This document shows, one piece after another, positions 3,122 to 64,000 of a stretch of 64,000 nucleotides of DNA; position 1 is the stretch's first letter, and each line of letters opens with the position of its first letter. The position numbers and the translations under genes are program-made. The stretch lies in the NCBI GenBank assembly GCA_036172315.1, contig JASFBC010000139.1, positions 1,728 to 65,727 of the forward strand. The letters run 5' to 3'. The notes below the pieces were generated by a model, which had not been told where the DNA came from, did no database searches, and worked only from the letters and a program-made list of their open reading frames with translations. The stretch comes from Anaerolineae bacterium (GTDB taxonomy: Bacteria; Chloroflexota; Anaerolineae; B4-G1; DUEL01).

Positions 3122-3526
3122 ATGACTCAACATCTGGTCCGAGAGATCTACCACAAAGGCGTCATCTTCTGCAACCCTGATACCCCCCTCCAGGAGGTCG
3201 TGCGGGTAATGGCCGATACCGACATTCACGCCATTATTGTGGCCGAAAGAGAGGGAGCAAAGCCGTTGGGGGTCATCTCTCACACCGATGCCATCGCTCA
3301 TTACGGGGAGGACTTGAGCCAGATTCGCGCCGGCGACGTGATGACCCGGGGGGTTATTACCATCTCAAAAGAGGCGCCGGTGGCCGAAGCGGTAAAGAAA
3401 ATGCTGGAAAGCCGGATCCACCGCCTCCTGGTTGTGGACGAGGACGGCACCCCTCTGGGTATTCTATCCACTACCGACATCATCCGCGATATGCGCGGCT
3501 CCAAATGGGTCTGGTATATGGGGTGA
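3122..3526 (+). CDS. CBS domain pair protein
   Basis: Two CBS motifs (HAIIVAERE..GVISHTD and HRLLVVDEDGTPLGILSTTDI). Confidence 0.8.
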   Translation: MTQHLVREIYHKGVIFCNPDTPLQEVVRVMADTDIHAIIVAEREGAKPLGVISHTDAIAHYGEDLSQIRAGDVMTRGVITISKEAPVAEAVKKMLESRIHRLLVVDEDGTPLGILSTTDIIRDMRGSKWVWYMG

Positions 3527-6921: not shown

Positions 6922-7512
6922 TCACCCTGATTTTTGGACCCCCGCCCGAAAGGCGGCCAGGTTGCGCTCCGGCTCCCGGGGCCACCGGTGCCGGATGGCT
7001 TCCTCCACGGCCGAAGCGGGGAGAATATTCCCCAGGCGAGTATGGCCAACCGCCGCCCCCAGTACGAACATGTTGGCTGGCAGACCGGCAGGGGATGAAT
7101 CCGGGGGGAGGTAGATGGGGTGCCCCTCCGCCGCGCGCACCTGCTCCAGCACCGTCTCCGGCGCCGGATACGCCGCCTTGCCCAGCAGGACGGCCGTTGG
7201 GAGCCAGCGCTCCCCGAAGAGGAGAAACTCCCCACCGGGCCGCAGGACGCGCACCGCCCGCAATGCCTCCGAGACCTCCATGGCGATGACCAGGTCGGCT
7301 CCCCGGGGTGGGATATTAGGGCCCGCCGTTGACCGTCCCAGCCGCAACTGAGCCTTGACCAGCCCGCCCCTTTGGGCCATCCCCTTGTAGGGATAGAAGC
7401 AGACCGGGAGGCCAAGGGCCACAGCCGCATCCGCCATCACCTCCCCGATAGTCAGGAGACCCTGACCGCCGACGCCGATGAGGAAAATGTCCAGAGTGTT
7501 ATCCGTTCCCAT
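6922..7512 (-). CDS. iorB: Indolepyruvate:ferredoxin oxidoreductase beta subunit (2-oxoacid:Fd oxidoreductase gamma-type)
   Basis: Starts MGTDNTLDIFLIGVGGQGLLT (POR gamma-type domain). Overlaps the iorA stop by 14 nt. The longer ORF-track N-terminus is alternate-frame read-through. Confidence 0.8.
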   Translation of the reverse strand: MGTDNTLDIFLIGVGGQGLLTIGEVMADAAVALGLPVCFYPYKGMAQRGGLVKAQLRLGRSTAGPNIPPRGADLVIAMEVSEALRAVRVLRPGGEFLLFGERWLPTAVLLGKAAYPAPETVLEQVRAAEGHPIYLPPDSSPAGLPANMFVLGAAVGHTRLGNILPASAVEEAIRHRWPREPERNLAAFRAGVQKSG

Positions 7513-9385
7513 TTTTCTCCACCGGAGTGTGGACCAGGGCATCCCGGTTGCACACCTGGGCGCAGAGGCCGCAGCCGTAACAGAGCGCGGGGTCAATCAC
7601 CACTGCCTCCGTTCCCAGGTCAATGGCTGGACAGCCCGTGAGCATAATGCACAACTTGCAGAGATTGCAGTTCTCCGGCACGACGCGCACCGCGCCGGCC
7701 CGGCGTCCCCGACGCTGCGCCTGAATAGCGCACTCCTGTCGGGATAGGACGACTTTGACCCCGGGCAGCGTCAGCGCTTGCTGGATGGCCGCCGTCGTCT
7801 CATCCAGGTTAAAGGGGTCCACGATAAAGAAGTGTTCCACTCCCAGTGCGGGCACCAGTCGCGCGATGTCCACCCTGCGGCCTCCCGGGGGCTGAAAGTC
7901 CTCGGCGGTGCCGGGATTGACCTGCATGCCCGTCATCGCCGTCCAGCCGTTGTCCATAATAATTACCGTCAGGGGGACGGCGTGCTGGACGGCGTTGATG
8001 AGGGCGGGGATTCCCGCGTGGAAGAAGGTGGAATCGCCGATGGTGGCGATAACCGGGGTTTTGACCCCGGCGTGGACGTAGCCCTGGGCCAGGCCGATAC
8101 TGGCCCCCATCGCGACCTCGTTCCAGACCGTGTCAAAGGGCGGGTTCATCCCCAGGATGGTACAGCCGATGTCGCCGGTTACCATCACCTGGTCCCGCCG
8201 GTATCCAGCCCGCCGGATGGCCCGATTGATGGCCAGGAAAGTCCCCCGATGGGGACAGCCCGGGCAGACAGTGATAGGGCGAGGGGCCGCCAGTCGCTCC
8301 GCCTCTGTTCCGGCCACGAAGAGGTTCAGGGGGATAGAGAGACCCCGTGCGACCGCAATCCCCCGGACCACGTGGCGCACGTCGTACTCACCGACCCGTT
8401 CCAGGGTCCCGTCCAGTTTGCCCACGATGCGGCCGGTGAAGCCGAGCCGGTGCGCTTCTACATAGACCCCCCGCTCCAGATGGGGCTCCAGTTCCTCCAG
8501 GACGACCATTGTATCTACGTGTTGTAGCAGGGTCCGGACCTCGTCGGAGGGGAAGGGGTGCGGGGCCCGAACGCGCAGGACGGAAACTGTCCGGGGGTCC
8601 AGGCCCAGACGGGTTGCTATCTCTAACCCCTCCTCCAGGTATGCGTTGACCACTCCGCTGGCGATGATTCCCAGTCCCCTCCCGGTCGTCGCGATCTGAA
8701 GAGAGTTCAGGCCCGCCTCTCGGATCCATCGTCCCGCTTTTTCCAGGCGGGCGATCAGGTCCTGGTGCTGCTGCATACAAATGGCCGCGCCCGCTTTGGT
8801 GAAGCGCGCGATGTCCCGGAGCAATTGGGGCTCCCGTTCAGGGAGGGGGGCGGGCTCACCCACCTCCACCGGCGCGGAGGCGTGAGCGATCGCGGTGACC
8901 AGTCGGACCAGGACCGGCGTCCCCACCGCTTCGGAGAGGTCAAAGGCCAGGCGGGTGAACTGGTATGCCTCCGCTACGGAGGAGGGGTCCAGGAGAGGAA
9001 GGTCGGCCAGAAGGGCAAAGCCCCGCGAGTCCTGCTCACACATCCCGGCGCTCACGCCGGGATCATCGGCCACATAGATGACCAGCCCGCCCACAACGCC
9101 GGAATAGGCGACCGAATAGAGGGAATCGGAGGCCACATTCAGGCCCGACATTTTCATTGTACAGAGGGCCCGCTGGCCCGCCCAGGCGGCCCCGGCGGCA
9201 ATCTCCAGGGCCACCTTCTCGTTGGTGCTCCATTCCACATAGACATCCGGCGGCTGGTTTGCCAGCAGACTCTCTATGGCCCCGGTGGAGGGGGTGCCTG
9301 GATAGCCGGTGATGACGCGGGCGCCTGCATGCAGCGCGCCCAGGGCCAGGGCTTCGTTGCCAGTTAGAAGTTTCTTTGAAGACAT
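7499..9385 (-). CDS. iorA: Indolepyruvate:ferredoxin oxidoreductase alpha subunit (TPP-binding, C-terminal 2x[4Fe-4S])
   Basis: N-terminus GNEALALGALHAGARVITGYPGTPS, a TPP domain, and C-terminal CNLCKLC..CPAID / CYGCGLCAQVC motifs. Start chosen at MSSKKLL. Confidence 0.85.
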   Translation of the reverse strand: MSSKKLLTGNEALALGALHAGARVITGYPGTPSTGAIESLLANQPPDVYVEWSTNEKVALEIAAGAAWAGQRALCTMKMSGLNVASDSLYSVAYSGVVGGLVIYVADDPGVSAGMCEQDSRGFALLADLPLLDPSSVAEAYQFTRLAFDLSEAVGTPVLVRLVTAIAHASAPVEVGEPAPLPEREPQLLRDIARFTKAGAAICMQQHQDLIARLEKAGRWIREAGLNSLQIATTGRGLGIIASGVVNAYLEEGLEIATRLGLDPRTVSVLRVRAPHPFPSDEVRTLLQHVDTMVVLEELEPHLERGVYVEAHRLGFTGRIVGKLDGTLERVGEYDVRHVVRGIAVARGLSIPLNLFVAGTEAERLAAPRPITVCPGCPHRGTFLAINRAIRRAGYRRDQVMVTGDIGCTILGMNPPFDTVWNEVAMGASIGLAQGYVHAGVKTPVIATIGDSTFFHAGIPALINAVQHAVPLTVIIMDNGWTAMTGMQVNPGTAEDFQPPGGRRVDIARLVPALGVEHFFIVDPFNLDETTAAIQQALTLPGVKVVLSRQECAIQAQRRGRRAGAVRVVPENCNLCKLCIMLTGCPAIDLGTEAVVIDPALCYGCGLCAQVCNRDALVHTPVEKNGNG

Positions 9386-9692
9386 TGCTCTCTCAGGGCA
9401 CTCCGTGTCGGAAATGGCGGGGCGCACAGGCCTGGCAGCCTGCGCTCCAGTTGTGCTCTTTGGGGCAAGTGGTTGCGATTATCTTTGAAAATCTTCATCA
9501 CACGCCCATTATAGCCAGGGTTGCGCCCCTGTCAACAGAGCAAAAGGAGGGCGGTCTCATCTCGTTCAGACCAGGGCCTTGCCTGGCCCGGTATATGTCG
9601 GATCGTTCATAAGCCCTGGGGTAACTATTCAGCGCTGATTGAAAGTAGCCTCTCCGGGCCTTTGGCCGGAGGACGGCCTGCGCCGTTCCGTT

Positions 9693-9806: not shown

Positions 9807-9895
9807 CCTCGGGTTCTATCCACAGCACTTGGCGCAAATCGCGGTTTTGTGTTATCATAACTGGTGCATTTCAGCCGCTGATGAGGAGGCCAACG

Positions 9896-10345
9896 ATGCT
9901 GAAGGAGTTCAAAGAGTTCGCCCTGCGGGGAAACGTCTTGGATATGGCCATTGGCATTATTATTGGCGCCGCCTTCGGCAGCGTCGTCTCATCTCTGGTT
10001 AAAGATATTCTGATGCCGCCTCTTGGCTTCCTTTTGAGCAACGTAGACTTCTCCAATCTCTTTATCAGTCTGAAGGGCCATTATGCTACTCTGGCGGAGG
10101 CCCAGGCGGCGGGCGCGCCGACCATCAACTACGGCATCTTCATCAATACGGCATTGAACTTTATTGTCGTGGTAGCAGCGCTCTTTTTCTTCATTGTCCG
10201 TCCGGTGAATCGCTGGCGGCGGACCCGAGAGGTCCCTCCCGCCGCGCCGACAACGAAGGAGTGTCCGTATTGCTTCTCCACCATCCCGCTGAAGGCCACC
10301 CGCTGCCCGTATTGTACATCCCATCTGGAGGGGAAAACCGGTTAA
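9896..10345 (+). CDS. mscL: Large-conductance mechanosensitive channel MscL with a C-terminal CxxC..CxxC zinc-ribbon-like tail
   Basis: MLKEFKEFALRGNVLDMAIGIIIGAAFG is the canonical MscL N-terminus. An AGGAGG SD precedes the ATG. The C-terminus is KECPYCFSTIPLKATRCPYCTSH. Confidence 0.88.
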   Translation: MLKEFKEFALRGNVLDMAIGIIIGAAFGSVVSSLVKDILMPPLGFLLSNVDFSNLFISLKGHYATLAEAQAAGAPTINYGIFINTALNFIVVVAALFFFIVRPVNRWRRTREVPPAAPTTKECPYCFSTIPLKATRCPYCTSHLEGKTG

Positions 10346-11461
10346 TGGACGAATTACGAAGCCGTCTTCTCGCCCTGCAGGCCCGACTCCAGGACATCCG
10401 GAGGCGGCTTTGACTTGGACGGCAAAGAGCAGGAAATCGCCCGCCTGGAGAAACGGGCCGCCGCACCGGACTTCTGGGATGACCTCCAGGCCGCTCAGCG
10501 GGTCATGCAGCGCCTGGCCGACCTGCGCGACGAGCGGGAGCCCTGGGTCGCCCTGGAACAGCGCGTCGCGGATGCCCTGGAACTGGCCGCATTGGGCGAC
10601 GAAAGCCTGATAGAAGAACTCCGGAACGAAGCGGAGGAGGTAGAAAACCGACTGGAAAAACTGGAGTTTCGCCTTCTCTTCTCCGGCCCCTACGACCGGA
10701 ATGACGCCTTCCTGGCCATCCACGCCGGGGCCGGCGGCACCGACGCCCAGGACTTCGCCGAGATGTTGCTGCGGATGTACCTGCGCTGGGCCGAATCCCG
10801 GGGCTACCAGACCGACCTGGTGGACCGGCTCTATGGAGAGGAAGCCGGCATCAAACGGGCCACCGTCGCCGTCTCCGGGCCCTACGCCTACGGCTACCTG
10901 CGAGCCGAGCGGGGCGTCCACCGGCTGGTCCGCCTCTCCCCCTTTGACGCCGCCCATCGCCGCCACACCTCCTTCGCCCTGGTGGAGGTCTGGCCGGACC
11001 TGCCGGAAACGGCCAGCATTCACATCAATCCGGACGATCTGAAGATTGAGACTTTTCGCTCCTCTAGCGCAGGCGGCCAGCATATGCAGAAAAACGAGAC
11101 CGCCGTCCGCATCACCCACCTCCCCACCGGCATCGTCGTCACCTGCCAGAACGAGCGCTCCCAGACCCAGAACCGGGAGACAGCCCTGCGGGTTCTGCGG
11201 GCCCGTCTCATAGAAATGGAGGAAGAAAAACGCCAGCGGGAACTGGCGGAAATCAAAGGCAAACACATTGAGGCGGCCTGGGGCAACCAGATTCGCTCCT
11301 ACATCCTCCACCCCTACCAACTGGTCAAGGACCACCGCACCGGCTACGAAACCGGCAACACTCAGGCCGTGCTGGACGGAGAACTGGACGCGTTTATGGA
11401 AGCGTACTTGAGGTCCACTCTCTGGGAAGGAGGAAACGGAGCATGGACGAACAACCGGTAG
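10345..11461 (+). CDS. prfB: Peptide chain release factor 2, requiring a programmed +1 frameshift at CTT TGA C (10408-10414)
   Basis: Frame 0 runs ATG(10345)..22 codons..CGG CTT TGA(10411), preceded by the internal SD GGAGG. The +1 frame continues DGKEQEIARLEKR... to 11461 with the GGQ motif (SSSAGGQHMQKNE). Confidence 0.9.
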
Positions 11462-16309: not shown

Positions 16310-17722
16310 ATGAAAAAACGTCGCGCACAAATTTTCTTTATCGGAACCCTGTTTCTGACCGATGCGCTGATGGCCGGGGCGGCCTTTTACGGCGCCTACT
16401 GGCTGCGCGCGACGCTCCCCTTTCCGGCGGAGGCGGTCACCCTGGCCGCGCCCCCCGCCTACGCCCCGGTGATGCTGGCCCATGTCGCAGCGGTCCTCAT
16501 CGCTCTGGCCTTCAACCGTCTCTACATCCTGGCCCGTAGCCCCTCCCGGGTGGACGAGTTCTATCAGACCATCGGGGCCGCCACGACAGGCACCATCACC
16601 GGCATCGCCCTCTCCTACTTCCTCTTCAAAAACACACCCCTGGAGGTGGATTACCCCCGGGCGATGATGATATATGCCTGGATGCTGACCATTCTCCTGG
16701 TGACGGTGGGGCGGCTGGCCCACGGGCGGCTGCGGGCGGCCCTCCAGGCCCGGGGCTGGGGACGGGACCGGGTGCTGGTGGTGGGCACCGGGGACGTGGC
16801 GCGGATGATTCTCCACAAGATTCTGGGCAACCCCGGCCTAGGTTATCAGGTGGTGGGGACGGTAGAGGTAGAGGGTTACCCAACGGTAACCCTGCCGGCC
16901 CCCATTCTGGGCAATGCCCGCGACTTGGGCAACCTGATTGAACAGCACCAGGTGGATGAAGTCATCATCGCGCTGCCGGAGGCAACCCACCAGGAGATTC
17001 TCACCCTTATCTCCGAGTGCGAGCGGGGCAAGGCGACCATCAAGGTTTTCCCCGACGTGTTCCAGATCATCGCTGGACCGATGGGCATCGGCGACCTGGG
17101 CGGGCTCCCTCTGCTGACGGTGCGCGAGGTCGCCCTGCGGGGCTGGCGGCGGGCCGCCAAACGGTTGATGGACATCGTCGGCGCAACGGTGGGGCTCATT
17201 CTCCTCTCCCCGCTGATGCTCCTCACCGCCATCCTTATCAAACTGGATTCCCCCGGCCCCGCCTTCTATGTCCAGGAACGGATGGGGCTGGACGCCCGCC
17301 CCTTCCTGATGTTCAAGTTCCGCTCCATGCGGCAGGACGCAGAGGCCCGGGGGCCGGGCTGGACCCGCCCCGGCGACCCCCGGGTGACTCGCCTGGGCAG
17401 TACTCTGCGCCGACTGAACGTGGACGAGTTGCCCCAGTTGATCAACGTCCTGCTGGGGGAGATGAGCCTGGTAGGGCCTCGCCCGGAGCGGCCCGTCTAC
17501 GTGGCCCAGTTCCGCCGCTCCATTCCCCGCTACATGGACCGGCACCGGGAGAAGGCCGGCATGACCGGCTGGGCCCAGGTAAACGGCCTGCGGGGGGATA
17601 CCTCCATCGCCGAGCGGACCAAGTACGACCTCTGGTACATTGAGAACTGGTCGCTCCTGCTGGACATCAAAATTCTCCTGCGCACGCTGGTCAACATCTT
17701 CCGCTCCCCCAACGCATATTGA
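16310..17722 (+). CDS. Undecaprenyl-phosphate sugar phosphotransferase (exopolysaccharide-priming, WbaP/EpsL-like)
   Basis: N-terminal TM region plus the C-terminal bacterial sugar transferase domain (FKFRSM..PRVTRLGSTLRRLNVDELPQLINVL.GEMSLVGPRPE). Confidence 0.85.
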   Translation: MKKRRAQIFFIGTLFLTDALMAGAAFYGAYWLRATLPFPAEAVTLAAPPAYAPVMLAHVAAVLIALAFNRLYILARSPSRVDEFYQTIGAATTGTITGIALSYFLFKNTPLEVDYPRAMMIYAWMLTILLVTVGRLAHGRLRAALQARGWGRDRVLVVGTGDVARMILHKILGNPGLGYQVVGTVEVEGYPTVTLPAPILGNARDLGNLIEQHQVDEVIIALPEATHQEILTLISECERGKATIKVFPDVFQIIAGPMGIGDLGGLPLLTVREVALRGWRRAAKRLMDIVGATVGLILLSPLMLLTAILIKLDSPGPAFYVQERMGLDARPFLMFKFRSMRQDAEARGPGWTRPGDPRVTRLGSTLRRLNVDELPQLINVLLGEMSLVGPRPERPVYVAQFRRSIPRYMDRHREKAGMTGWAQVNGLRGDTSIAERTKYDLWYIENWSLLLDIKILLRTLVNIFRSPNAY

Positions 17723-19650: not shown

Positions 19651-20630
19651 GGCTCCTGCTCCCTTACCAGCGGCCGGAGAATGGGAGGAAGCGCGTCCCG
19701 GTCCCCTGTGACGGGCGGCACAATGGGCGGCTGGCCCATCCGGGCCATTATCGCCTGCCCCTCCGGGCCGATGAGAAACCGGACAAACTCCAGCGCCAGG
19801 TCGGGATGAGGGGCGTTTTTGGGGACGGTCACCCCGTAGACGATGGGCTCCCCCCAAACGGTGACGGTCTGACCCGGGCCGGCGCCGGTGATCTCCACAC
19901 GCGCCTGGCGATAGAAGTCGGCGTACTCTGCATCCCCCAGGTTGATCTCCGGCGGCAGCGCCACAAACCGGAGGCCGTGCTGGACAGCGACCGAGCGGTA
20001 TTCAAAGGCATAGTCCACATCCCCCGATTGCAAGAGCGCGATCAACTCCACCGATTTGGGGCGCATATACGCCTTCGGACAGCGCGCCTCCAGCGTTCGG
20101 TAGAGGCCGGGCGCCCCGTAATGGGCCTCCGCCAGTTGCCAGACCATCAACGTACGATAGCCGCAGGGATCCGTATGAGGGTCGGCGCGGCCGCAGATGA
20201 CGCCATCCCGACCGAGAATTTCGTACCAGTTATCGGCGTCCACCTCGTCCGCATACCGGGAGCGGTCGGTGTAGGCCAACACCATCTCGTTGCGGGCAAA
20301 GAGGATATTCCAGTCGGCGAAGTCGGGGATGAGCAGCCGGTCAATGACCCCGTAGTCGGCAGAAATCATCAGGTCGGCCTCCCGGCCCAGTTCACGGATT
20401 TTGCGGGCGGCCTCGTTGCTGCCGGACGCCTCGGTCTCAAAGATGACCCCGGGGTAGTGGGTCTGGAAGGCCTCGGCGAGGGCCCGTACCGGCTCCGCCA
20501 GACTGCCAGCATGGAGGATGACCAGTTTCCCACCCCGGGCGGCCACCGGGGAGGGCGCGGGGAAGGACGACTGACACCCGGTCAGCCAAGAGGAAAGGAT
20601 GACGGCGGCCAGAATTGGACGAATTTTCAC
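19647..20630 (-). CDS. wtpA: Tungstate/molybdate-binding lipoprotein (WtpA-type substrate-binding protein)
   Basis: Lipobox LTGC. LVILHAGSLAEP..ETEASGSNEAARKIRELGREADLMISADY matches the WtpA pattern. GTG start with a GGAGGTG SD. Confidence 0.8.
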   Translation of the reverse strand: MKIRPILAAVILSSWLTGCQSSFPAPSPVAARGGKLVILHAGSLAEPVRALAEAFQTHYPGVIFETEASGSNEAARKIRELGREADLMISADYGVIDRLLIPDFADWNILFARNEMVLAYTDRSRYADEVDADNWYEILGRDGVICGRADPHTDPCGYRTLMVWQLAEAHYGAPGLYRTLEARCPKAYMRPKSVELIALLQSGDVDYAFEYRSVAVQHGLRFVALPPEINLGDAEYADFYRQARVEITGAGPGQTVTVWGEPIVYGVTVPKNAPHPDLALEFVRFLIGPEGQAIMARMGQPPIVPPVTGDRDALPPILRPLVREQEP

Positions 20631-22518
20631 TTTTCACCTCCGTTAACCACCAGGAGTAGTAGGCCCGGACCATCGCCTCTACGTCCAGCGTGATCCCCGC
20701 CAGCGGCCCCGCCTCCTGCGGCGGCTCTCCCCGCTCCCGCGCCGGCAGCGGGAACTCGCGCGGGAGCCCATGCCGCGCGTTGAAGGCATGGCGCAGCCGC
20801 TGAATGGCCTTTCCGGCCTCCAAGAACTCCGACTCCGTAATCCCCCAGCCAGTGGCGGCGTTCAGCCAGGCGAAAGGCGGCTCGCCCATATAGAGAGCAA
20901 AATGGCAGAGGCCCAAACTGTCATAGGCACGCAGGACGGCCATGCCAACGGCCATAACCCGTCCCTTCGTCGCGTAGTCGTAGCGACTGCCGGGCTTGAC
21001 CCCCTCCAGAGCGAAATACGGCATAAATGGCGGCAGTTCCACCGTTCCCGAGAGGGTGGCCGTGTGACGGCCCGGGGCCGGATCCACCGCATATCCCAGC
21101 GCCACTCCCGGTTCATAGAGGCCCCGGTGCATAGCCAGTTCCTGCCCTCCGGCGTGAACCGCCGCTTCCCGCGCCTCCGGGCCCAGTTGCTCGGATGCCC
21201 GCCGGACGCCATCGGCCAGCCATTCTCCCAGGCCCGGCTCCCGGCGGGCGATGCGTGCCGTCAGTTCTACAATCGCTTCGCCGTTCCCCCAGTCCAGCGG
21301 TAACTCCTCCGCCAGTTCCGGCGGAAGCCATCCCCGCTCCCGGCACTCTATGGCAAAAGCGATCGCGGCGCCGGCGGAAATAGTATCCAACCCGGCCCGG
21401 TTGCAGATGCGGTTACAGCGCATCACCACGTCCAGGTTGTCATTCAGCAGGAGCGGGCCGAAGGCGGCCAGCGTCTCGTACTCCGGCTTGTGATCGGTAT
21501 CGCCGTCGGACAGGCGGACGATGCCGCCGCAGGCTACCGGGCAAAACGAACAGCCGTACCCCCGAATCCTGGGCCGCACCACCGCTTCATCGCTCAGACG
21601 GGCGGCCCGGCGCAGCGGAAAGTCCCGGTAGCCGATGCCAGTCCAGTTGCGGACCGGCGTGTCTCCCAACTCCACCAGCGCGGCCGTGCCGGCGGCGGTC
21701 CCATAAAGGCGATACGTGTCTATGATTATGGAAGTCGGGCCGCCACTGGGCCGAAGGCGCAGCCGCCGCATCACAGGGAGGGCGCGCAGGAGGAAGCCGG
21801 CGATGCCGGAGGCCCAGCGGGACGGCTTGCGGCGGAACAGTCGCCGGTACTCCTCTGTGGTCCGCCGGAAGGCCTCGGGGTCGGCCAGAGGCGGACGGGC
21901 TTTCCCCCGTGCGGCGACAGCCTTGAGGTTCTTGGCTCCCATGACCGCGCCCAGGCCGCACCGCGCGGCGGCCCGCCCGTCGTCGTTGATGATGGCGGCC
22001 AGAAGTGACCGCTTCTCCCCTGCCGGGCCGATACAGGCGGCGCGCACGTCCCGGCCGTGGGCGGCGCGCAGAGCGGCCTCCGTCTCCCGGGTATCCAGAC
22101 CCCAGAGGTCGGTGGCGTCCCGGATCTCGGCCCGCTCGCCGTCTACATACAGGTAGACAGGCCGCTCCGCCTGGCCGGTGATGAAGACGCCGTCGTAGCC
22201 GGCCCCCCGCAGAGCGGGGCCGAAATTCCCCCCGCAGTTGGAGTCCCCCCAGGCGCCGGTGAGGGGGGAGCGGGCGCAGACCATGAAGCGTCCGCCGAAG
22301 AGCGCGCCGCTCCCAGTGAGGAGCCCGGGGAGAAAACCGATGATGTTCTCCGGTCCCAACGGGTCGGCGCCGGACGGGATGCGCTCGTAAAGGGCCCAGG
22401 CCCTCAGGCCGTACCCACCCAGATACCGGCGATAGACCTCTTCGGGAGGTGTCTCTACGGTGATTTCGCCGGTGGAAAGGTTGACAAAGGGCAGTTTTCC
22501 CCAGTAACCGTTGGGCAT
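20437..22518 (-). CDS. aor: Tungsten-containing aldehyde:ferredoxin oxidoreductase (AOR family)
   Basis: MPNGYWGKLPFVNLSTGEI N-terminus and AOR N/C domains. Its frame has no stop until 20437, so the C-terminal ~65 aa overlap wtpA. The true 3' end is uncertain. Confidence 0.8.
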   Translation of the reverse strand: MPNGYWGKLPFVNLSTGEITVETPPEEVYRRYLGGYGLRAWALYERIPSGADPLGPENIIGFLPGLLTGSGALFGGRFMVCARSPLTGAWGDSNCGGNFGPALRGAGYDGVFITGQAERPVYLYVDGERAEIRDATDLWGLDTRETEAALRAAHGRDVRAACIGPAGEKRSLLAAIINDDGRAAARCGLGAVMGAKNLKAVAARGKARPPLADPEAFRRTTEEYRRLFRRKPSRWASGIAGFLLRALPVMRRLRLRPSGGPTSIIIDTYRLYGTAAGTAALVELGDTPVRNWTGIGYRDFPLRRAARLSDEAVVRPRIRGYGCSFCPVACGGIVRLSDGDTDHKPEYETLAAFGPLLLNDNLDVVMRCNRICNRAGLDTISAGAAIAFAIECRERGWLPPELAEELPLDWGNGEAIVELTARIARREPGLGEWLADGVRRASEQLGPEAREAAVHAGGQELAMHRGLYEPGVALGYAVDPAPGRHTATLSGTVELPPFMPYFALEGVKPGSRYDYATKGRVMAVGMAVLRAYDSLGLCHFALYMGEPPFAWLNAATGWGITESEFLEAGKAIQRLRHAFNARHGLPREFPLPARERGEPPQEAGPLAGITLDVEAMVRAYYSWWLTEVKSENSSNSGRRHPFLLADRVSVVLPRALPGGRPGWETGHPPCWQSGGAGTGPRRGLPDPLPRGHL

Positions 22519-22531
22519 GGGAGACCTCCGG

Positions 22532-22556
22532 ATAGGGTCGGGCGGAGGTAGGGGCA
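22532..22556 (-). terminator. Stem-loop GGGGCAGGG-gcaa-CCCTGCCCC between the LysM gene stop and the aor start
   Basis: Perfect 9-bp GC stem directly 3' of the LysM-protein stop. Confidence 0.4.
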
Positions 22557-22572
22557 GGGGCAAGCCCTGCCC

Positions 22573-23736: not shown

Positions 23737-24309
23737 TCATTGAGCCATTTGCCCGCCCAACCCCAGGTCCGCCGCGACCGATTGCATGGCCTCCAGGACG
23801 ATGCCAACGTGCTCCCAGAGGTCCACCCCCAGGAGCGCCGCGCCTTCCTCGGCCGCGCTCCGGTCAGCACCCGCTGCGAACCGTTTGTCCTTCCACTTGT
23901 TCTTGACGCTCTTGACCGTAATCTGGCGGATGTCCTTGGAGGGGTGGACCAGGGTTACGGCGACAATAAGGCCGGTCAGGTCGTCCACGGCGTAGAGGGC
24001 GTGCTCCATCCGGTTCTCCCGCTCCACGCCGGTCCGTTCGGCCGCATGGGAGAGGACGGCGCGGACAATCTCCTCAGGCCAGCCTTGCTCCCGCAGGATG
24101 CGGGCGCCGGTGAGCGGGTGGTCTTCAGGGAAGCGCTCGTAGTCAAAGTCGTGGAGGAGCCCCACCACGGCCCATTTCTCCTCGTCCTCCCCGAAGCGGC
24201 GGGCATAGGCCCGCATGGCCGCCTCCACGGCCAGCATATGCTTGAGCAGGTTCGGGTTCTGGATGTACTCGGTGACCAGTTTCCAGGCATTTTCTCGGGT
24301 GGGTTGCAT
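23737..24309 (-). CDS. HD-domain phosphohydrolase
   Basis: H..HD motif (LKHMLAVE..GLLHDFDY). Start at MQPTREN, with a GGAGGT SD. Confidence 0.75.
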   Translation of the reverse strand: MQPTRENAWKLVTEYIQNPNLLKHMLAVEAAMRAYARRFGEDEEKWAVVGLLHDFDYERFPEDHPLTGARILREQGWPEEIVRAVLSHAAERTGVERENRMEHALYAVDDLTGLIVAVTLVHPSKDIRQITVKSVKNKWKDKRFAAGADRSAAEEGAALLGVDLWEHVGIVLEAMQSVAADLGLGGQMAQ

Positions 24310-36647: not shown

Positions 36648-36782
36648 ACTCGTTCCCTGTGGGGTAAATTGTAGCACAGAACTCCATCCCCGCAAGATGC
36701 CACTTGCGCCCCCGCCGAATCCCGATACAATATGAATGACGGACGACAGACCACAGGCCACAGGCGACAGTTCGGAGGGAAC

Positions 36783-38918
36783 ATGTCACCCAACGATTTC
36801 CGCATCACTGCTCACCCCATTCTGCCGGTAGAGCCCCGACCGACCTTCTCTTTCTTCTGGCAAGGAAGGGAGATGACGGCCTGCGAAGGAGAGACCATCG
36901 CCTCGGCCCTCTTCGCCAACGGCGTCCGCATCTTCGGACACCACTATAAAGATAACGCCCCCCAAGGCATCTTCTGCGCCAATGGCCAGTGCGCGCAGTG
37001 CACCGTCGTCGCCGACGGCCTGCCGGTTAAGTCCTGTATGACGCTGGTTCGCCCTGGGATGCACGTGGAGCCACTGAACGGCAAGCCCGTCCTCCCCAAC
37101 GTCCAGACCGTCCCCCAGATGCGCCCCATAGAAACTGTAGAGGTGGAGTGCCTCATCATCGGCGGGGGGCCGGCGGGCCTCTCCGCCGCCATAGAACTGG
37201 GCAAAGCGGGCGTCCGCACGCTCATCGTGGACGACAAGCACCGCCTGGGCGGCAAACTGGTCCTCCAGACCCACAAGTTCTTCGGGTCAGTGGACGCCTG
37301 CTACGCCGGGACGCGCGGTATAGATATCGCCACGAAACTGGAAGAAGAAGTCCGCCGGTACGAAAATGTCCAGGTCTGGCTGAACTCTACCGCCCTGGCC
37401 GTCTTCTCTGACCGGAAAGTGGGGATATTGCGAGATGGCAACCGCTACGTCCTGGTCCAGCCCCATGTCCTTCTGGTCGCGACGGGCGCGCGGGAGAAGT
37501 CGCTGGTCTTCCGGGGCAATACCCTCCCCGGCGTCTATGGCGCAGGCGCGTTCCAGACGCTGGTGAACCGGGACCTGGTGCGCGCGGCCCGGCGGCTTTT
37601 CGTTGTCGGAGGGGGAAACGTGGGACTCATCGCGGCCTACCACGCCCTCCAGGCCGGCATCCAGGTGGTGGGCCTGTGCGAGGCGCTCCCGGAATGCGGC
37701 GGTTACAAGGTTCATAAGGACAAACTGGTCCGCATGGGCGTCCCCATTTACACTTCCCATACCATCCTCAGCGCTAACGGCGAGACGGAGGTGGAATCGG
37801 TCACCATCGCCCGGATTGACGACCGCTGGCAGCCCATCCCTGGTACGGAGAAGACCTTCGCCTGCGATACGGTGCTGATTGCGGTGGGGCTGGATCCGGT
37901 GGACGAGTTCTACCGCAAGGCGAAGGAATTCGGCCTGCCGGTCTACGCGGCGGGGGATGCCGAGGAGATCGCCGAGGCGTCGGCGGCGATGTTCACCGGG
38001 CGCATCCGGGGGCTGGAGATCGCCCGCGCGCTGGGCCGGGACGTGGGGGAAGTACCGCCGGAGTGGCACCGCACCGCTGAAATTCTCAAATCCCGCCCCG
38101 GCGCGGTGGTCCGGGAGGACATCCCGGAGAAAGAAGAGGGCGTCTTCCCGGTCCTTTATTGCTCCCAGGAGATTCCCTGCAACCCCTGTACCTCTGTCTG
38201 TCCCCAGAAATGCATCGTCATTGAGGGAGAGGACATCCGGGGACTGCCGGAGTATGTGGGGGAAGGGTGCATCGGCTGTGAGCAATGCGTCGCCATCTGC
38301 CCGGGGCTGGCCATCACGCTGGTGGACTACCGCCAGGACCCGGAATATCCGACCGTCACCATTCCCTACGAGTTCCCGCCGGAGAGCATTCATGAGGGGG
38401 ATGTGGTGACAGTCCTGGATACGGAGGGGATCGTCCTAGGGAACGTGGAAGTGGTGAAAGTCCGGGCGCCGAAGTTCGCCGACCGGGCGCTGCTGGTGCG
38501 GGTCCGGGCGCCCCGGGAGATCGCCCGCCGCATCGCCGGGATTCGGGTTCAGGAGCCGGCGGTAGCGGAGCCGGAGGCGGTCTATGTCTCCCGGATGCTG
38601 GAGGATGAGATCGTCTGCCGCTGCGAGCGGGTGACGGTGGGAGAGATTCGGGCGCTGATCCGCGCCGGCCTGCGGGATATGAATCACATCAAGGGCATCA
38701 CCCGGGCTGGCATGGGCGCCTGCGGCGGCAAGACATGCACCAACCTGATCCTCCGCCTCTTCCGGGAGGAGGGGATCCCGCCGGAGGAGGTAACGGAGAG
38801 CGTGCGGAGGCCCCTCTTCATAGAGGTCCCGCTGGGGGTCTTTGCGGGCGCGGCGGCCGAGGAGGTGGTGGCGGAGGCTCCGCCGACCCGCAAGGATGTG
38901 CACCGATGGGGGATGTAG
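36783..38918 (+). CDS. Multi-domain FeS flavoprotein: N-terminal 2Fe-2S, FAD/NAD(P)-binding pyridine-nucleotide-disulfide oxidoreductase fold, 4Fe-4S dicluster, C-terminal BFD-like [2Fe-2S] domain (SoxA/HcnB/PdhA-like)
   Basis: C..C..C cluster (CANGQCAQCTV..C), GGGPAGLSAA, VVGGGNVGL, CPQKC..CIGCEQCVAICP and CRCERVTVGEI..CGGKTC. Confidence 0.7.
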   Translation: MSPNDFRITAHPILPVEPRPTFSFFWQGREMTACEGETIASALFANGVRIFGHHYKDNAPQGIFCANGQCAQCTVVADGLPVKSCMTLVRPGMHVEPLNGKPVLPNVQTVPQMRPIETVEVECLIIGGGPAGLSAAIELGKAGVRTLIVDDKHRLGGKLVLQTHKFFGSVDACYAGTRGIDIATKLEEEVRRYENVQVWLNSTALAVFSDRKVGILRDGNRYVLVQPHVLLVATGAREKSLVFRGNTLPGVYGAGAFQTLVNRDLVRAARRLFVVGGGNVGLIAAYHALQAGIQVVGLCEALPECGGYKVHKDKLVRMGVPIYTSHTILSANGETEVESVTIARIDDRWQPIPGTEKTFACDTVLIAVGLDPVDEFYRKAKEFGLPVYAAGDAEEIAEASAAMFTGRIRGLEIARALGRDVGEVPPEWHRTAEILKSRPGAVVREDIPEKEEGVFPVLYCSQEIPCNPCTSVCPQKCIVIEGEDIRGLPEYVGEGCIGCEQCVAICPGLAITLVDYRQDPEYPTVTIPYEFPPESIHEGDVVTVLDTEGIVLGNVEVVKVRAPKFADRALLVRVRAPREIARRIAGIRVQEPAVAEPEAVYVSRMLEDEIVCRCERVTVGEIRALIRAGLRDMNHIKGITRAGMGACGGKTCTNLILRLFREEGIPPEEVTESVRRPLFIEVPLGVFAGAAAEEVVAEAPPTRKDVHRWGM

Positions 38919-62487: not shown

Positions 62488-62578
62488 CGACGGTCTCCGG
62501 AAGGGGATGCTGGGCAGCGTCCGGCGGGAAGTCCCGGCCGTTCATCATCCCCCATTATGCCATTTTCTGACGACTCCG

Positions 62579-63316
62579 TCAAGCGGGCCTGCGGCGGTCA
62601 TAAATCCCTGCTCGCCCGTTGCGGCGGATGCGGATGACTTCCCAGAACATATTCCAGGAATCCCGCAGGGGGCTGACCCGGCTTCCTTCGCCATAGTACC
62701 AGTCAATCGGCACCTCTACGATGCGGTAGCCGCGCCGCCGGGCGATGTAGAGCACCTCCACGTCAAACGCCCAGCCGTTCAGTACCTGCACCGAGAAGAG
62801 GTCGCGCGCCACTTCCCGGCGGAAACATTTGAAGCCGCACTGGGTGTCCTGGATGCCCGGCACCGCCAGCAGGCGCACAAAGGCGTTGAAGGCGCGGCCC
62901 ATCAGATGGCGATACTGGGGTTCGTTGAACCGACGCGCGCCCGGGGCTTCGCGGGAGGCGATGGCGACGTCGTAGTCGGAGAGGGCCGGGGGAAGGAAAC
63001 GGGAGACCTGCTCAATGGGCATCGCCAGATCGGCATCGCAGATGAACAGGTACTCCCCCCGTCCGGCCCGCATCCCCTTTCGGACCGCCGCGCCTTTCCC
63101 CCGGACGGGCTGGTAGAGGAGGGAGACGATGGGGTGCTCGGCCGCGACTTCCCGGACGACCTCCGCCGTCCGGTCGGTGCTGGCGTTATCCACCACCAGT
63201 ACTTCCACCGGATAGGCCTGCGCTTTGGCGAAGGCGACGACCTGGGGGAGGGTCATCGGCAGGCGATGCTCCTCGTTGTAGGCCGGAATGATGATGGTCA
63301 GCAACGGTTCGGTCAT
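62579..63316 (-). CDS. Polyprenol-phosphate glycosyltransferase, DPM1-like GT2 (dolichyl-phosphate mannose synthase family)
   Basis: LTIIIPAYNEE, VVDNASTDRT and a DAD motif. 245 aa. Confidence 0.85.
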   Translation of the reverse strand: MTEPLLTIIIPAYNEEHRLPMTLPQVVAFAKAQAYPVEVLVVDNASTDRTAEVVREVAAEHPIVSLLYQPVRGKGAAVRKGMRAGRGEYLFICDADLAMPIEQVSRFLPPALSDYDVAIASREAPGARRFNEPQYRHLMGRAFNAFVRLLAVPGIQDTQCGFKCFRREVARDLFSVQVLNGWAFDVEVLYIARRRGYRIVEVPIDWYYGEGSRVSPLRDSWNMFWEVIRIRRNGRAGIYDRRRPA

Positions 63317-63747
63317 TCCGGCCCCCCCACTCCGGCGACGACGGCCCGGATGGCCGCCCGGTCGGGCAGGCCGGCCCGGACGTAGGCCGCCTGTCCTTTC
63401 CCGTCAAAGACGATAAAGGTGGGGACGGCGCCCACACCGTACTCCTGGGCCAGCATCAGCCCTGTCCGGCTCATCACGTTGATCCGCAGCACCTTTGCGC
63501 TACCATCCAGTTCCTGTTCTAACCTGTCCACGACAGGTTTAGCCATCAGGCAGGCGCTTCAGGTGTTGGAGAAGAATTCCACCACGACGGGCCGTCCGCT
63601 GCGAATCTCCTGCTGAAAGGCCTCCACGGAGAGGTCATCGCCCGGGGTACGCAGGAAGAGCCAGCCCCCCGCCAGCAGGCCGAGTACCAGCAGAAGAGCC
63701 CAGTTCTGTCGGAGCAGGTCGTAGAGCATATATCCAATGCCGTTCAC
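63313..63747 (-). CDS. Membrane-anchored thioredoxin-fold protein with an in-frame UGA at the first redox-Cys position (candidate UxxC selenoprotein)
   Basis: GTG start with an AAGGAG SD (GTGA overlap with the upstream stop), then a TM helix NWALLLVLGLLAGGWLFL, then a Trx fold: VVVEFFSNT-[TGA]-SACLMAKPVVDRL...AVPTFIVFDGKG. A hairpin GCUAAaCCUGUC-GUG-GACAGGUUAG follows the UGA, 21 nt downstream. If the UGA is a stop, the product is a 62-aa fragment. Confidence 0.55.
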
Positions 63748-64000
63748 TTTTCTCCTTCTATCAGCCGAAAGATGCCCAGAATCCGGGTCTCCTCCCGCCG
63801 GAGGCGGAACCCGGCCTCCCGGATGGTTTGAGTCGTCTCCCGGTTCAGGTGGCAGACGCCGTTCCAGACCAGCCACAGGGGATGGAGGTGGTCGGTCAGC
63901 CAGGCGCCCAGTCCCCGGCCCCGGGTGTGCTCCAGGAGGAGCAGACGGCCCCTGGGCCGGAGGACCCGGTACACCTCTCCCAGCGCTCCCTCCGGGTCGG
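63744..64000 (-). CDS. Class I SAM-dependent methyltransferase, 5'-truncated at the window edge (only the C-terminal part is present)
   Basis: LRPRGRLLLLEH is a methyltransferase post-motif-II region. The ORF is open to the window end. Confidence 0.55.
   Translation of the reverse strand, partial: DPEGALGEVYRVLRPRGRLLLLEHTRGRGLGAWLTDHLHPLWLVWNGVCHLNRETTQTIREAGFRLRREETRILGIFRLIEGEK

Follow-up and report, generated by a model that had tools for sequence, protein, structure and literature searches.

A membrane-anchored thioredoxin of Chloroflexota with an in-frame UGA codon that is very probably read as selenocysteine

Introduction

The subject of this report is a gene at positions 63313-63747 on the minus strand of a 64,000-nt stretch of DNA from an Anaerolineae bacterium of the phylum Chloroflexota (GenBank assembly GCA_036172315.1, contig JASFBC010000139.1, positions 1,728 to 65,727), hereafter called the window. 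The gene contains one in-frame TGA codon, and an earlier note, made from the sequence alone, had proposed it as a candidate selenoprotein gene. Here, we describe the gene, its relatives and an RNA hairpin that follows the TGA. From sequence comparisons, we consider it very probable that 63313-63747 is a single gene for a membrane-anchored thioredoxin whose UGA is read as selenocysteine (Sec), with the active site U63-S-A-C66. Throughout, L001-L044 denote related loci and P0001-P0003 homologous proteins; positions without an L label refer to the window.

The gene and its reading frame

Two open reading frames (ORFs) on the minus strand, 63559-63876 and 63313-63546, lie in one frame and are split by the TGA at 63559-63561 and four further codons. 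Translation of 63313-63747 meets a single internal stop (...VVVEFFSNT*SACLMAKPVVDRL...AVPTFIVFD...), and the translated sequence reads MNGIGYMLYDLLRQNWALLLVLGLLAGGWLFLRTPGDDLSVEAFQQEIRSGRPVVVEFFSNT*SACLMAKPVVDRLEQ...AVPTFIVFDGKGQ...GGPE*. Based on the translation, Pfam matches and orthologue alignments, this is a complete putative selenoprotein gene of 144 codons plus a stop, encoding a membrane anchor and a thioredoxin domain. It begins with a GTG (63745-63747) that aligns with the ATG or GTG starts of orthologues in L001, L005, L012, L014 and L016 and that overlaps, as GTGA, the TGA stop (63744-63746) of the upstream gene for a UbiE-type methyltransferase. The first 43 codons of the mechanically called ORF 63559-63876 lie within this methyltransferase gene, and the true start is the GTG. 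At the other end, the TGA stop (63313-63315) overlaps, as ATGA, the ATG (63314-63316) of a downstream GT2 glycosyltransferase gene. Both overlaps, which the earlier note had described as translational coupling, are seen in the sequence.

The in-frame TGA, at the predicted Sec residue 63, coincides with the nucleophilic Cys in the CxxC motif of thioredoxins. In the resulting UxxC motif, the resolving residue Cys66 is encoded by a TGC at 63550-63552, a position that holds a Cys codon in all 24 aligned genes with the TGA (hereafter Sec forms, as opposed to Cys forms), TGC in 23 of them and TGT in one. Further 3′ of the UGA, V108-P109-T110 (63418-63426) corresponds to the cis-proline loop and aligns with the IPT of solved thioredoxins; the cis-Pro is present in 22 of the 22 Sec forms translated past the UGA. 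A Logan assembly of sequencing run SRR24425660 (L011) is 100% identical to the window over 1101 aligned bases, the TGA included.

Protein family, fold and membrane anchor

When the stop is replaced by Cys, the Pfam family Thioredoxin (PF00085) matches residues 40-123, and thus runs across the TGA, with an E-value of 2e-13 and 50.7 bits against a gathering cut-off of 23.5. A second family, PF13098, is matched at 28.7 bits, barely over its cut-off of 27. The PF00085 match confirms that the two ORFs, as had been claimed from their shared frame, encode one thioredoxin. In alignments with thioredoxins from the PDB, IVDFWAPWCGPC pairs with VVEFFSNT[U/C]SxC, WCGPC with T-[U/C]-S-x-C and IPT with VPT. 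For the structure, we relied on the AlphaFold 2 model of a Cys orthologue with 80% identity, in which the predicted local distance difference test score exceeds 90 in the blocks covering residues 41-130, one block at 87 excepted. The model has the beta-alpha-beta-alpha-beta-beta-alpha order of thioredoxins, with a strand at 54-59, C63 and a helix at 64-80, preceded N-terminally by two helices of which the second is hydrophobic. The top 50 Foldseek matches in the PDB are classical thioredoxins, mostly with target-normalised template modelling scores of about 0.8 and a root-mean-square deviation of about 2 Å over about 101 residues. In this model, a single continuous thioredoxin domain spans the position of the UGA.

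More specific family assignments were tried and rejected. The product is a thioredoxin-family protein and not an orthologue of TrxA, as it reaches 55.9 bits with the equivalog model TIGR01068, whose cut-off is 96.8. A scan of the product with NCBIfam yielded nothing over cut-off, and this includes the curated selenoprotein families SaoT (NF040730), HUIPC (NF047660), VPGUxxT (NF041383), TsoB (NF045694) and PDO_seleno_TRX (TIGR02187); among these, only TsoB (19 vs 805) and TIGR02187 (17 vs 185) appear at all, far below their cut-offs. The window gene is covered by no curated NCBIfam model. A protein of the TlpA/ResA/DsbE type was rejected as well, given the scores for ResA (12.2 vs 170), TlpA (11.8 vs 230) and DsbE (18.5 vs 123) and the classical thioredoxins returned by Foldseek.

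A single transmembrane helix is predicted at residues ~16-32 (ALLLVLGLLAGGWLFL; 63652-63702, minus strand), followed by a conserved Arg, and corresponds to a helix at 17-31 in the model. All family members have a hydrophobic segment. Indications of the side on which the domain would lie point in two directions. The adjacency of thioredoxin-reductase genes in some relatives (see below) argues for a cytoplasm-facing domain. Three features speak for a domain outside: the acidic stretch that follows the membrane helix, an Arg-rich N-terminus in L035 and the outgroup forms with two helices. These outgroup Cys forms (L041, 9666-10187; L042, 9788-10273; and P0003, with FFSNFCAGC) have two N-terminal hydrophobic helices with an RR(Y/R) loop between them. 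In the window protein, it is the amphipathic helix at the N-terminus that lines up with the first outgroup helix, an observation that bears on topology.

Conservation of the UGA and selection on the downstream frame

Syntenic orthologues of the protein were found by protein search, with identities of 80% (P0001) and 75% (P0002), both of which have FFSNTCSVC and a TGC at the UGA codon (L001, L005). The first Cys of the WCGPC motif in PDB thioredoxins aligns at this codon as well, which bears out the proposal that the TGA stands at the first Cys of CxxC. A scan of one genome per GTDB species resulted in 30 loci, all from metagenome-assembled genomes (MAGs) and nearly all labelled Thermoflexales, Thermoflexus, Thermoflexia, Anaerolineae or Chloroflexota. 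The motif VVEFFSNT-TGA-x-x-TGC occurs in 23 of these species-representative MAGs, down to ~40% protein identity with the window (L020 has the variant VAVEFFSNT before its TGA); a few of the 30 loci have Cys instead. The window itself, L012 and L016 have the same TGA in addition to these 23 MAGs. Three 62-residue proteins that end in ...FFSNT belong to the 90%-identity cluster of the first orthologue, and their contigs show a split into 62 and 77 aa at the same TGA (GCA_017880035.1, GCA_034435875.1 and two Logan runs).

The sequence past the TGA is maintained as a coding sequence. Over 75 codons, 22 lineages have zero stops and zero frameshifts and retain the resolving Cys, K-P-x-V-D and the cis-Pro VPT loop. 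Conservation is seen on both sides of the UGA (22-24 lineages), with VVEFFSNT before it and xxCLxxKPxVD...VPT...FDG after it. Among the ten closest sequences, the ratio of non-synonymous to synonymous substitution rates (dN/dS) has a median of 0.25 before the TGA and 0.30 after it; by these ratios, the reading frame downstream of the UGA is under purifying selection.

The same gene leaves a trace in protein databases. With the Cys orthologue as query, HMMER was run exhaustively against 1.84 billion representatives clustered at 50% identity and returned many full-length forms with [FY][FY]SNxCxxC and ~22 clusters of 57-83-residue proteins that start 2 to 24 residues (most of them 2 to 6) downstream of the Sec position, such as MCLTVKPVVDG... 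or MAKPVVDRL... Also found were two fragments of the N-terminal part, 62 and 66 residues long, one of which ends in ...FSNT, the other running off-frame after about residue 38. Public gene calls are split into 62 and 77 aa in L012 (10001-10435), L014 (1077-1511), L016 (174-608) and the window (63313-63876). We take the short fragments to be gene-caller products of Sec forms; the fragment clusters and the split calls together indicate that the Sec form is widespread and routinely split by gene callers. The Met that starts the 77-aa ORF (ATG, 63544-63546) is Leu, Ile or Val in most relatives, and hence there is no conserved re-initiation codon.

A SECIS-like hairpin downstream of the UGA

Within the coding sequence, just past the UGA, lies a hairpin (63519-63542, minus strand) that resembles a bacterial selenocysteine insertion sequence (SECIS) element. 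It consists of an 8-bp stem (63532-63539 / 63521-63528), two lower pairs flanking one bulged A, and a GUG loop (63529-63531), with 27 nt between the UGA and the loop. The hairpin folds with a minimum free energy (MFE) of -10.7 kcal/mol (z = -3.6; 0 of 200 shuffles fold as well) and is retained in the MFE fold of its 66-nt context. Published limits for bacterial SECIS elements are a loop of 3-9 nt with a G in its first two positions, an upper stem of 4-16 bp, 16-37 nt from UGA to loop and an MFE of -7.5 kcal/mol or lower (PMC13188914). With its 3-nt GUG loop, 8-bp stem, G at position 1, spacing of 27 nt and -10.7 kcal/mol, the window element falls within every one of them. Five Sec forms, the window among them, fold at -7.7 to -12.9 kcal/mol.

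To this we can add covariation across relatives. In a gapless alignment of 24 Sec forms (UGA in columns 25-27; stem in columns 47-54/58-65 and 44-45/66-67), 87.5% of stem cells are paired, and the covariation score is 0.254, a value that none of 500 column shuffles attains (0.121 in the shuffles); controls in which the partners were slid by 1-3 columns score 0.10 or less. Changes on both sides occur in four pairs (27 cells). The pair types are UA/CG/GC, GC/AU and AU/GC. Two pairs are never broken in the 24 Sec forms: 51-61 (UA 13, CG 9, GC 1, UG 1) and 52-60 (GC 17, AU 7). Both couple a synonymous site (the third base of a Pro or Asp codon) with an amino-acid-changing one, and covariation is therefore not explained by selection on the protein. 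At the paired sites, AGG/CGG Arg changes to GGG Gly and GUC Val to AUC Ile, turning PVVDR into PIVDG; the hairpin is a compact case of an RNA structure that forces amino-acid changes on a coding sequence. The earlier note had called the hairpin SECIS-like with a spacing in the usual range; its agreement with the published limits and its covariation across relatives support that description. Among the Cys forms, L005 (-2.2 kcal/mol) and L041 (-6.9 kcal/mol) have relaxed the hairpin, and L001 still folds at -10.0 kcal/mol.

UGA as an ordinary stop codon in the window

UGA is a normal stop codon here. About half of the ORFs in the mechanical list for the window end in TGA, and the window encodes release factor 2 (RF2; prfB, 10345-11458, plus strand; TIGR00020, 486 bits vs a cut-off of 370) with its programmed +1 frameshift. 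The short initial frame of prfB runs from the ATG at 10345 to a Shine-Dalgarno-like GGAGG and CGG CTT TGA C (site 10399-10414, TGA at 10411-10413), after which the main frame continues to 11458. An in-frame UGA therefore needs local recoding to be translated.

With its frameshift, prfB provides another, well-known instance of recoding in the window. The heptamer CTTTGAC of this site is present in 20 copies on both strands of the window, with 4.7 expected from shuffles (largest shuffle 12), an excess that is probably due to codon or dipeptide bias of a GC-rich genome; the prfB copy is the only one in a frameshift context. Three other in-frame TGA junctions, at 3524-3526 (plus strand), 17720-17722 (plus strand) and 23737-23739 (minus strand), were considered as selenoprotein candidates and rejected, as Pfam shows unrelated adjacent genes at each of them (CBS|FBPase, sugar transferase|unknown and HD|LysM, respectively). 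A motif-filtered scan of all loci for read-through candidates of the UxxC/CxxU type gave only noise.

Proposed decoding and alternative explanations

We infer that Sec is the inserted residue and that it would be delivered by the SelB route. A ribosome would meet the UGA at 63559-63561, and the hairpin just downstream would act as a bacterial SECIS element that recruits SelB-GTP-Sec-tRNA(Sec), so that Sec is inserted without termination by RF2 and translation runs on through the remainder of the thioredoxin fold. The resulting protein would cross the membrane once and use its thioredoxin domain to reduce, or to exchange, disulfide bonds on the membrane surface, passing through a selenenylsulfide intermediate with Cys66.

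Several results weigh against this decoding. ARAGORN finds no tRNA gene in the 64-kb window, and Rfam at gathering thresholds finds no family in the whole window, tRNA-Sec included. Scanning the window ORFs with Pfam reveals no domains of sel genes, and tblastn searches of the window and all loci (622 kb), with Escherichia coli SelA, SelB and SelD as queries, detected no homologue in the window and, among the related loci, only a selA in L040. Nor was tRNA-Sec found in 33 related loci. Around the hairpin (62500-64000), permissive E-values gave chance matches only and no Rfam SECIS family; this is weak evidence and expected, because bacterial SECIS elements are diverse and poorly covered. Finally, between the window and its closest relatives, the downstream dN/dS is 0.35-0.5, somewhat above the upstream value and clearly below 1.

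The Sec pathway as such exists in the phylum Chloroflexota. SelB and a Sec-containing formate dehydrogenase have been described in single-cell genomes of Anaerolineales (PMC4959059), and our homologue search retrieved thousands of Chloroflexota-like metagenomic SelA proteins; neither this search nor the cluster names gave a taxon or assembly link to the carrier MAGs, and the pathway is thus not tied to them. The selA of L040 (17941-19539, minus strand) is 46% identical to E. coli SelA. L040 is a MAG of Candidatus Australimonas brisbanensis (Dehalococcoidia), and its selA lies ~8 kb from a Cys-form homologue (9875-10381, plus strand; VVLQVYSDSCTLC). A match in L031, between tRNA-Thr and tRNA-Trp, was considered as SelB and turned out to be EF-Tu.

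The TGA might be thought an artefact of sequencing or assembly, or a nonsense mutation of recent origin that would have made the gene a pseudogene of a Cys-thioredoxin, since one base separates it from the TGC of orthologues with 75-80% identity and the source is a MAG. This has very little probability and is effectively refuted: the same TGA is present in a separate assembly of reads (L011), in the 23 species-representative MAGs and in L012 and L016, and a covarying hairpin is maintained specifically in TGA forms. Because so many MAGs share the codon, and because the frame behind it is intact in 22 lineages and under purifying selection (dN/dS ~0.3), it is neither an error nor a mark of decay. 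It is just as hard to credit that the locus holds two genes, or one that terminates and re-initiates, so that a split thioredoxin is made up of a membrane peptide of 62 aa and a C-terminal fragment of 77 aa whose start is the ATG at 63544-63546. Gene callers do annotate exactly these two ORFs in public MAGs; yet the ATG gives way to Leu, Ile or Val in most relatives, the invariant Cys66 would fall into the untranslated gap between the fragments, and the Pfam domain and the model show an uninterrupted fold that a split would sever at its active site.

A third explanation supposes read-through of the UGA, or its recoding to a standard residue (Cys, Trp or Gly), with the hairpin stimulating read-through without Sec machinery. 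Stimulatory hairpins for read-through exist in other systems, and the window yielded no Sec machinery. We nevertheless regard this explanation as improbable. UGA is not reassigned here, given RF2 with its UGA-sensing frameshift site and the ORFs that end in TGA. Because the orthologues have Cys at position 63, a redox nucleophile is needed there, and a lineage in need of Cys would encode it with TGC, which is what two sub-lineages have. In its position, loop and spacing, the hairpin conforms to the model of a SelB-type SECIS element, and Sec machinery is documented in Chloroflexota.

Relation to known selenoproteins

Thioredoxins with Sec in a UxxC motif (PF00085), such as that of Treponema denticola, are an experimentally verified selenoprotein family (PMC13188914, Table 1), of which seven genes were counted in an earlier survey (PMC1794560). 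The window protein shares with them the classical fold, a predicted Sec in place of the N-terminal nucleophilic Cys, an in-ORF SECIS-like hairpin just past the UGA and the existence of Cys homologues. It differs in its N-terminal transmembrane anchor, in the invariant VVEFFSNT-U-x-x-C-L-x-x-K-P of its family instead of W-C-G-P-C, in its distribution among Chloroflexota (Thermoflexales/Anaerolineae) MAGs and in scoring below the TIGR01068 cut-off. Domain, Sec position and recoding architecture are the same, and we see neither a new mechanism nor a new protein class.

Two further groups are similar in part. Thiol:disulfide interchange or isomerase-like selenoproteins (PF13098 / cd02966) with UxxC have been predicted in Deltaproteobacteria and metagenomes (PMC13188914, Table 1); they too have a thioredoxin fold, are often membrane-anchored or exported, and belong to a family that the window protein matches. 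In contrast to them, its best sequence and fold matches are classical thioredoxins and not proteins of the TlpA/ResA/DsbE type. ResA, CcmG/DsbE and TlpA likewise have a single N-terminal transmembrane anchor followed by a thioredoxin fold with a CxxC-type site. Unlike for these, no CcdA/DsbD partner gene was seen near the window gene, the scores of their models are far below cut-off, and some relatives of the window protein adjoin a thioredoxin reductase of the cytoplasmic type. As for the hairpin, it resembles the bacterial SECIS model, with E. coli fdhF as its archetype, in lying within the ORF right after the UGA and in having a small apical loop that starts with G-U. It has no sequence similarity to the fdhF element and is matched by no Rfam SECIS model, and its binding of SelB is a prediction.

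Probable exchange of selenocysteine and cysteine

A neighbour-joining tree built from 351 nt interleaves Sec and Cys forms: L001 and L005, both with Cys, fall within separate Sec sub-clades, each closest to Sec forms (88-90% identity), and the outgroup (L041, L042) is Cys. The Cys forms concerned lie at 6439-6873 in L001/L017 and, for L005-L010, at positions such as 10001-10423 in L005. From the nesting, we lean slightly towards a history in which Sec is ancestral in this clade of membrane-anchored Chloroflexota thioredoxins, followed by at least two recent reversions to Cys, one of which (L001/L017) would have left an intact "fossil" SECIS and the other (L005-L010) would have lost the hairpin. 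Replacements of Sec by Cys are rare in bacteria and documented mainly for FdhA and SelD (PMC13188914, a 2026 review). If this history is true, the clade offers a clean natural series in which to follow how a thiol oxidoreductase exchanges Sec and Cys and how its SECIS element decays.

The value of the locus lies mainly in this evolutionary aspect, with nested Cys forms that suggest recent Sec-to-Cys reversions, and in annotation. In the public MAG records and assemblies consulted, the gene is called as fragments of ~62 and ~77 residues, and its pieces make up about two dozen 50%-identity fragment clusters; annotation of the family is therefore wrong in a systematic way and hides it from function prediction. 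Early surveys credited Chloroflexota with only three selenoproteins, to which the present family would add a widespread lineage of membrane-anchored Sec-thioredoxins in Thermoflexales/Anaerolineae.

Gene neighbourhood

The neighbours of the gene in the window are context only. Downstream lies a gene for a GT2 hexosyltransferase (62579-63316, minus strand) that resembles polyprenyl/dolichyl-phosphate enzymes by the names of its 90% cluster and by weak NCBIfam matches only, and that is conserved beside the thioredoxin in close relatives only. Upstream is the 3′ part of the methyltransferase gene (63744-64000, minus strand), which runs off the window and was identified by Pfam in the orthologous gene of L001-L016. 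The order (UvrA)-methyltransferase-thioredoxin-GT2-polyprenyl synthase-GT2-GT4-DUF2142 is found only in relatives with at least 75% identity (Thermoflexales-like). The earlier note had thought a UxxC selenoprotein beside glycosyltransferases unusual: the setting itself holds for the close, Thermoflexales-like group, but it is not conserved in the family, and UxxC Sec-thioredoxins were already catalogued. A functional tie to glycosylation as a feature of the family was rejected, as distant forms have other neighbours; because synteny is limited to the close group, the link to glycosylation is specific to that lineage.

Among more distant Sec forms, that of L031 is followed after 4 nt by a gene resembling thioredoxin reductase (10415-11365), and such a gene occupies the corresponding position in L032, L033, L034 and L044; a glutaredoxin-thioredoxin reductase fusion is encoded just upstream in L030 (8669-9865). 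Other neighbours of distant Sec forms are RidA (L027, L028) and QueG (L038, L039). We infer from this adjacency that a thioredoxin reductase may be the redox partner, which is a better functional lead than glycosylation and hints at the physiological reductant. In L036, a Chloroflexota MAG, a canonical thioredoxin (LVDFWAEWCTPC; 10468-10878, plus strand) is encoded ~30 nt downstream of the Sec-thioredoxin.

Elsewhere, the window also encodes an aldehyde:ferredoxin oxidoreductase, a subunit of the 2-oxoacid:ferredoxin oxidoreductase type and a large Fe-S flavoprotein (Fer2_4 + Pyr_redox_2 + BFD), in this order at 20440-22563 (minus strand), 7502-9427 (minus strand) and 36732-38915 (plus strand). 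These redox genes would suit an anaerobe or a microaerophile, and selenoproteins are common in such organisms.

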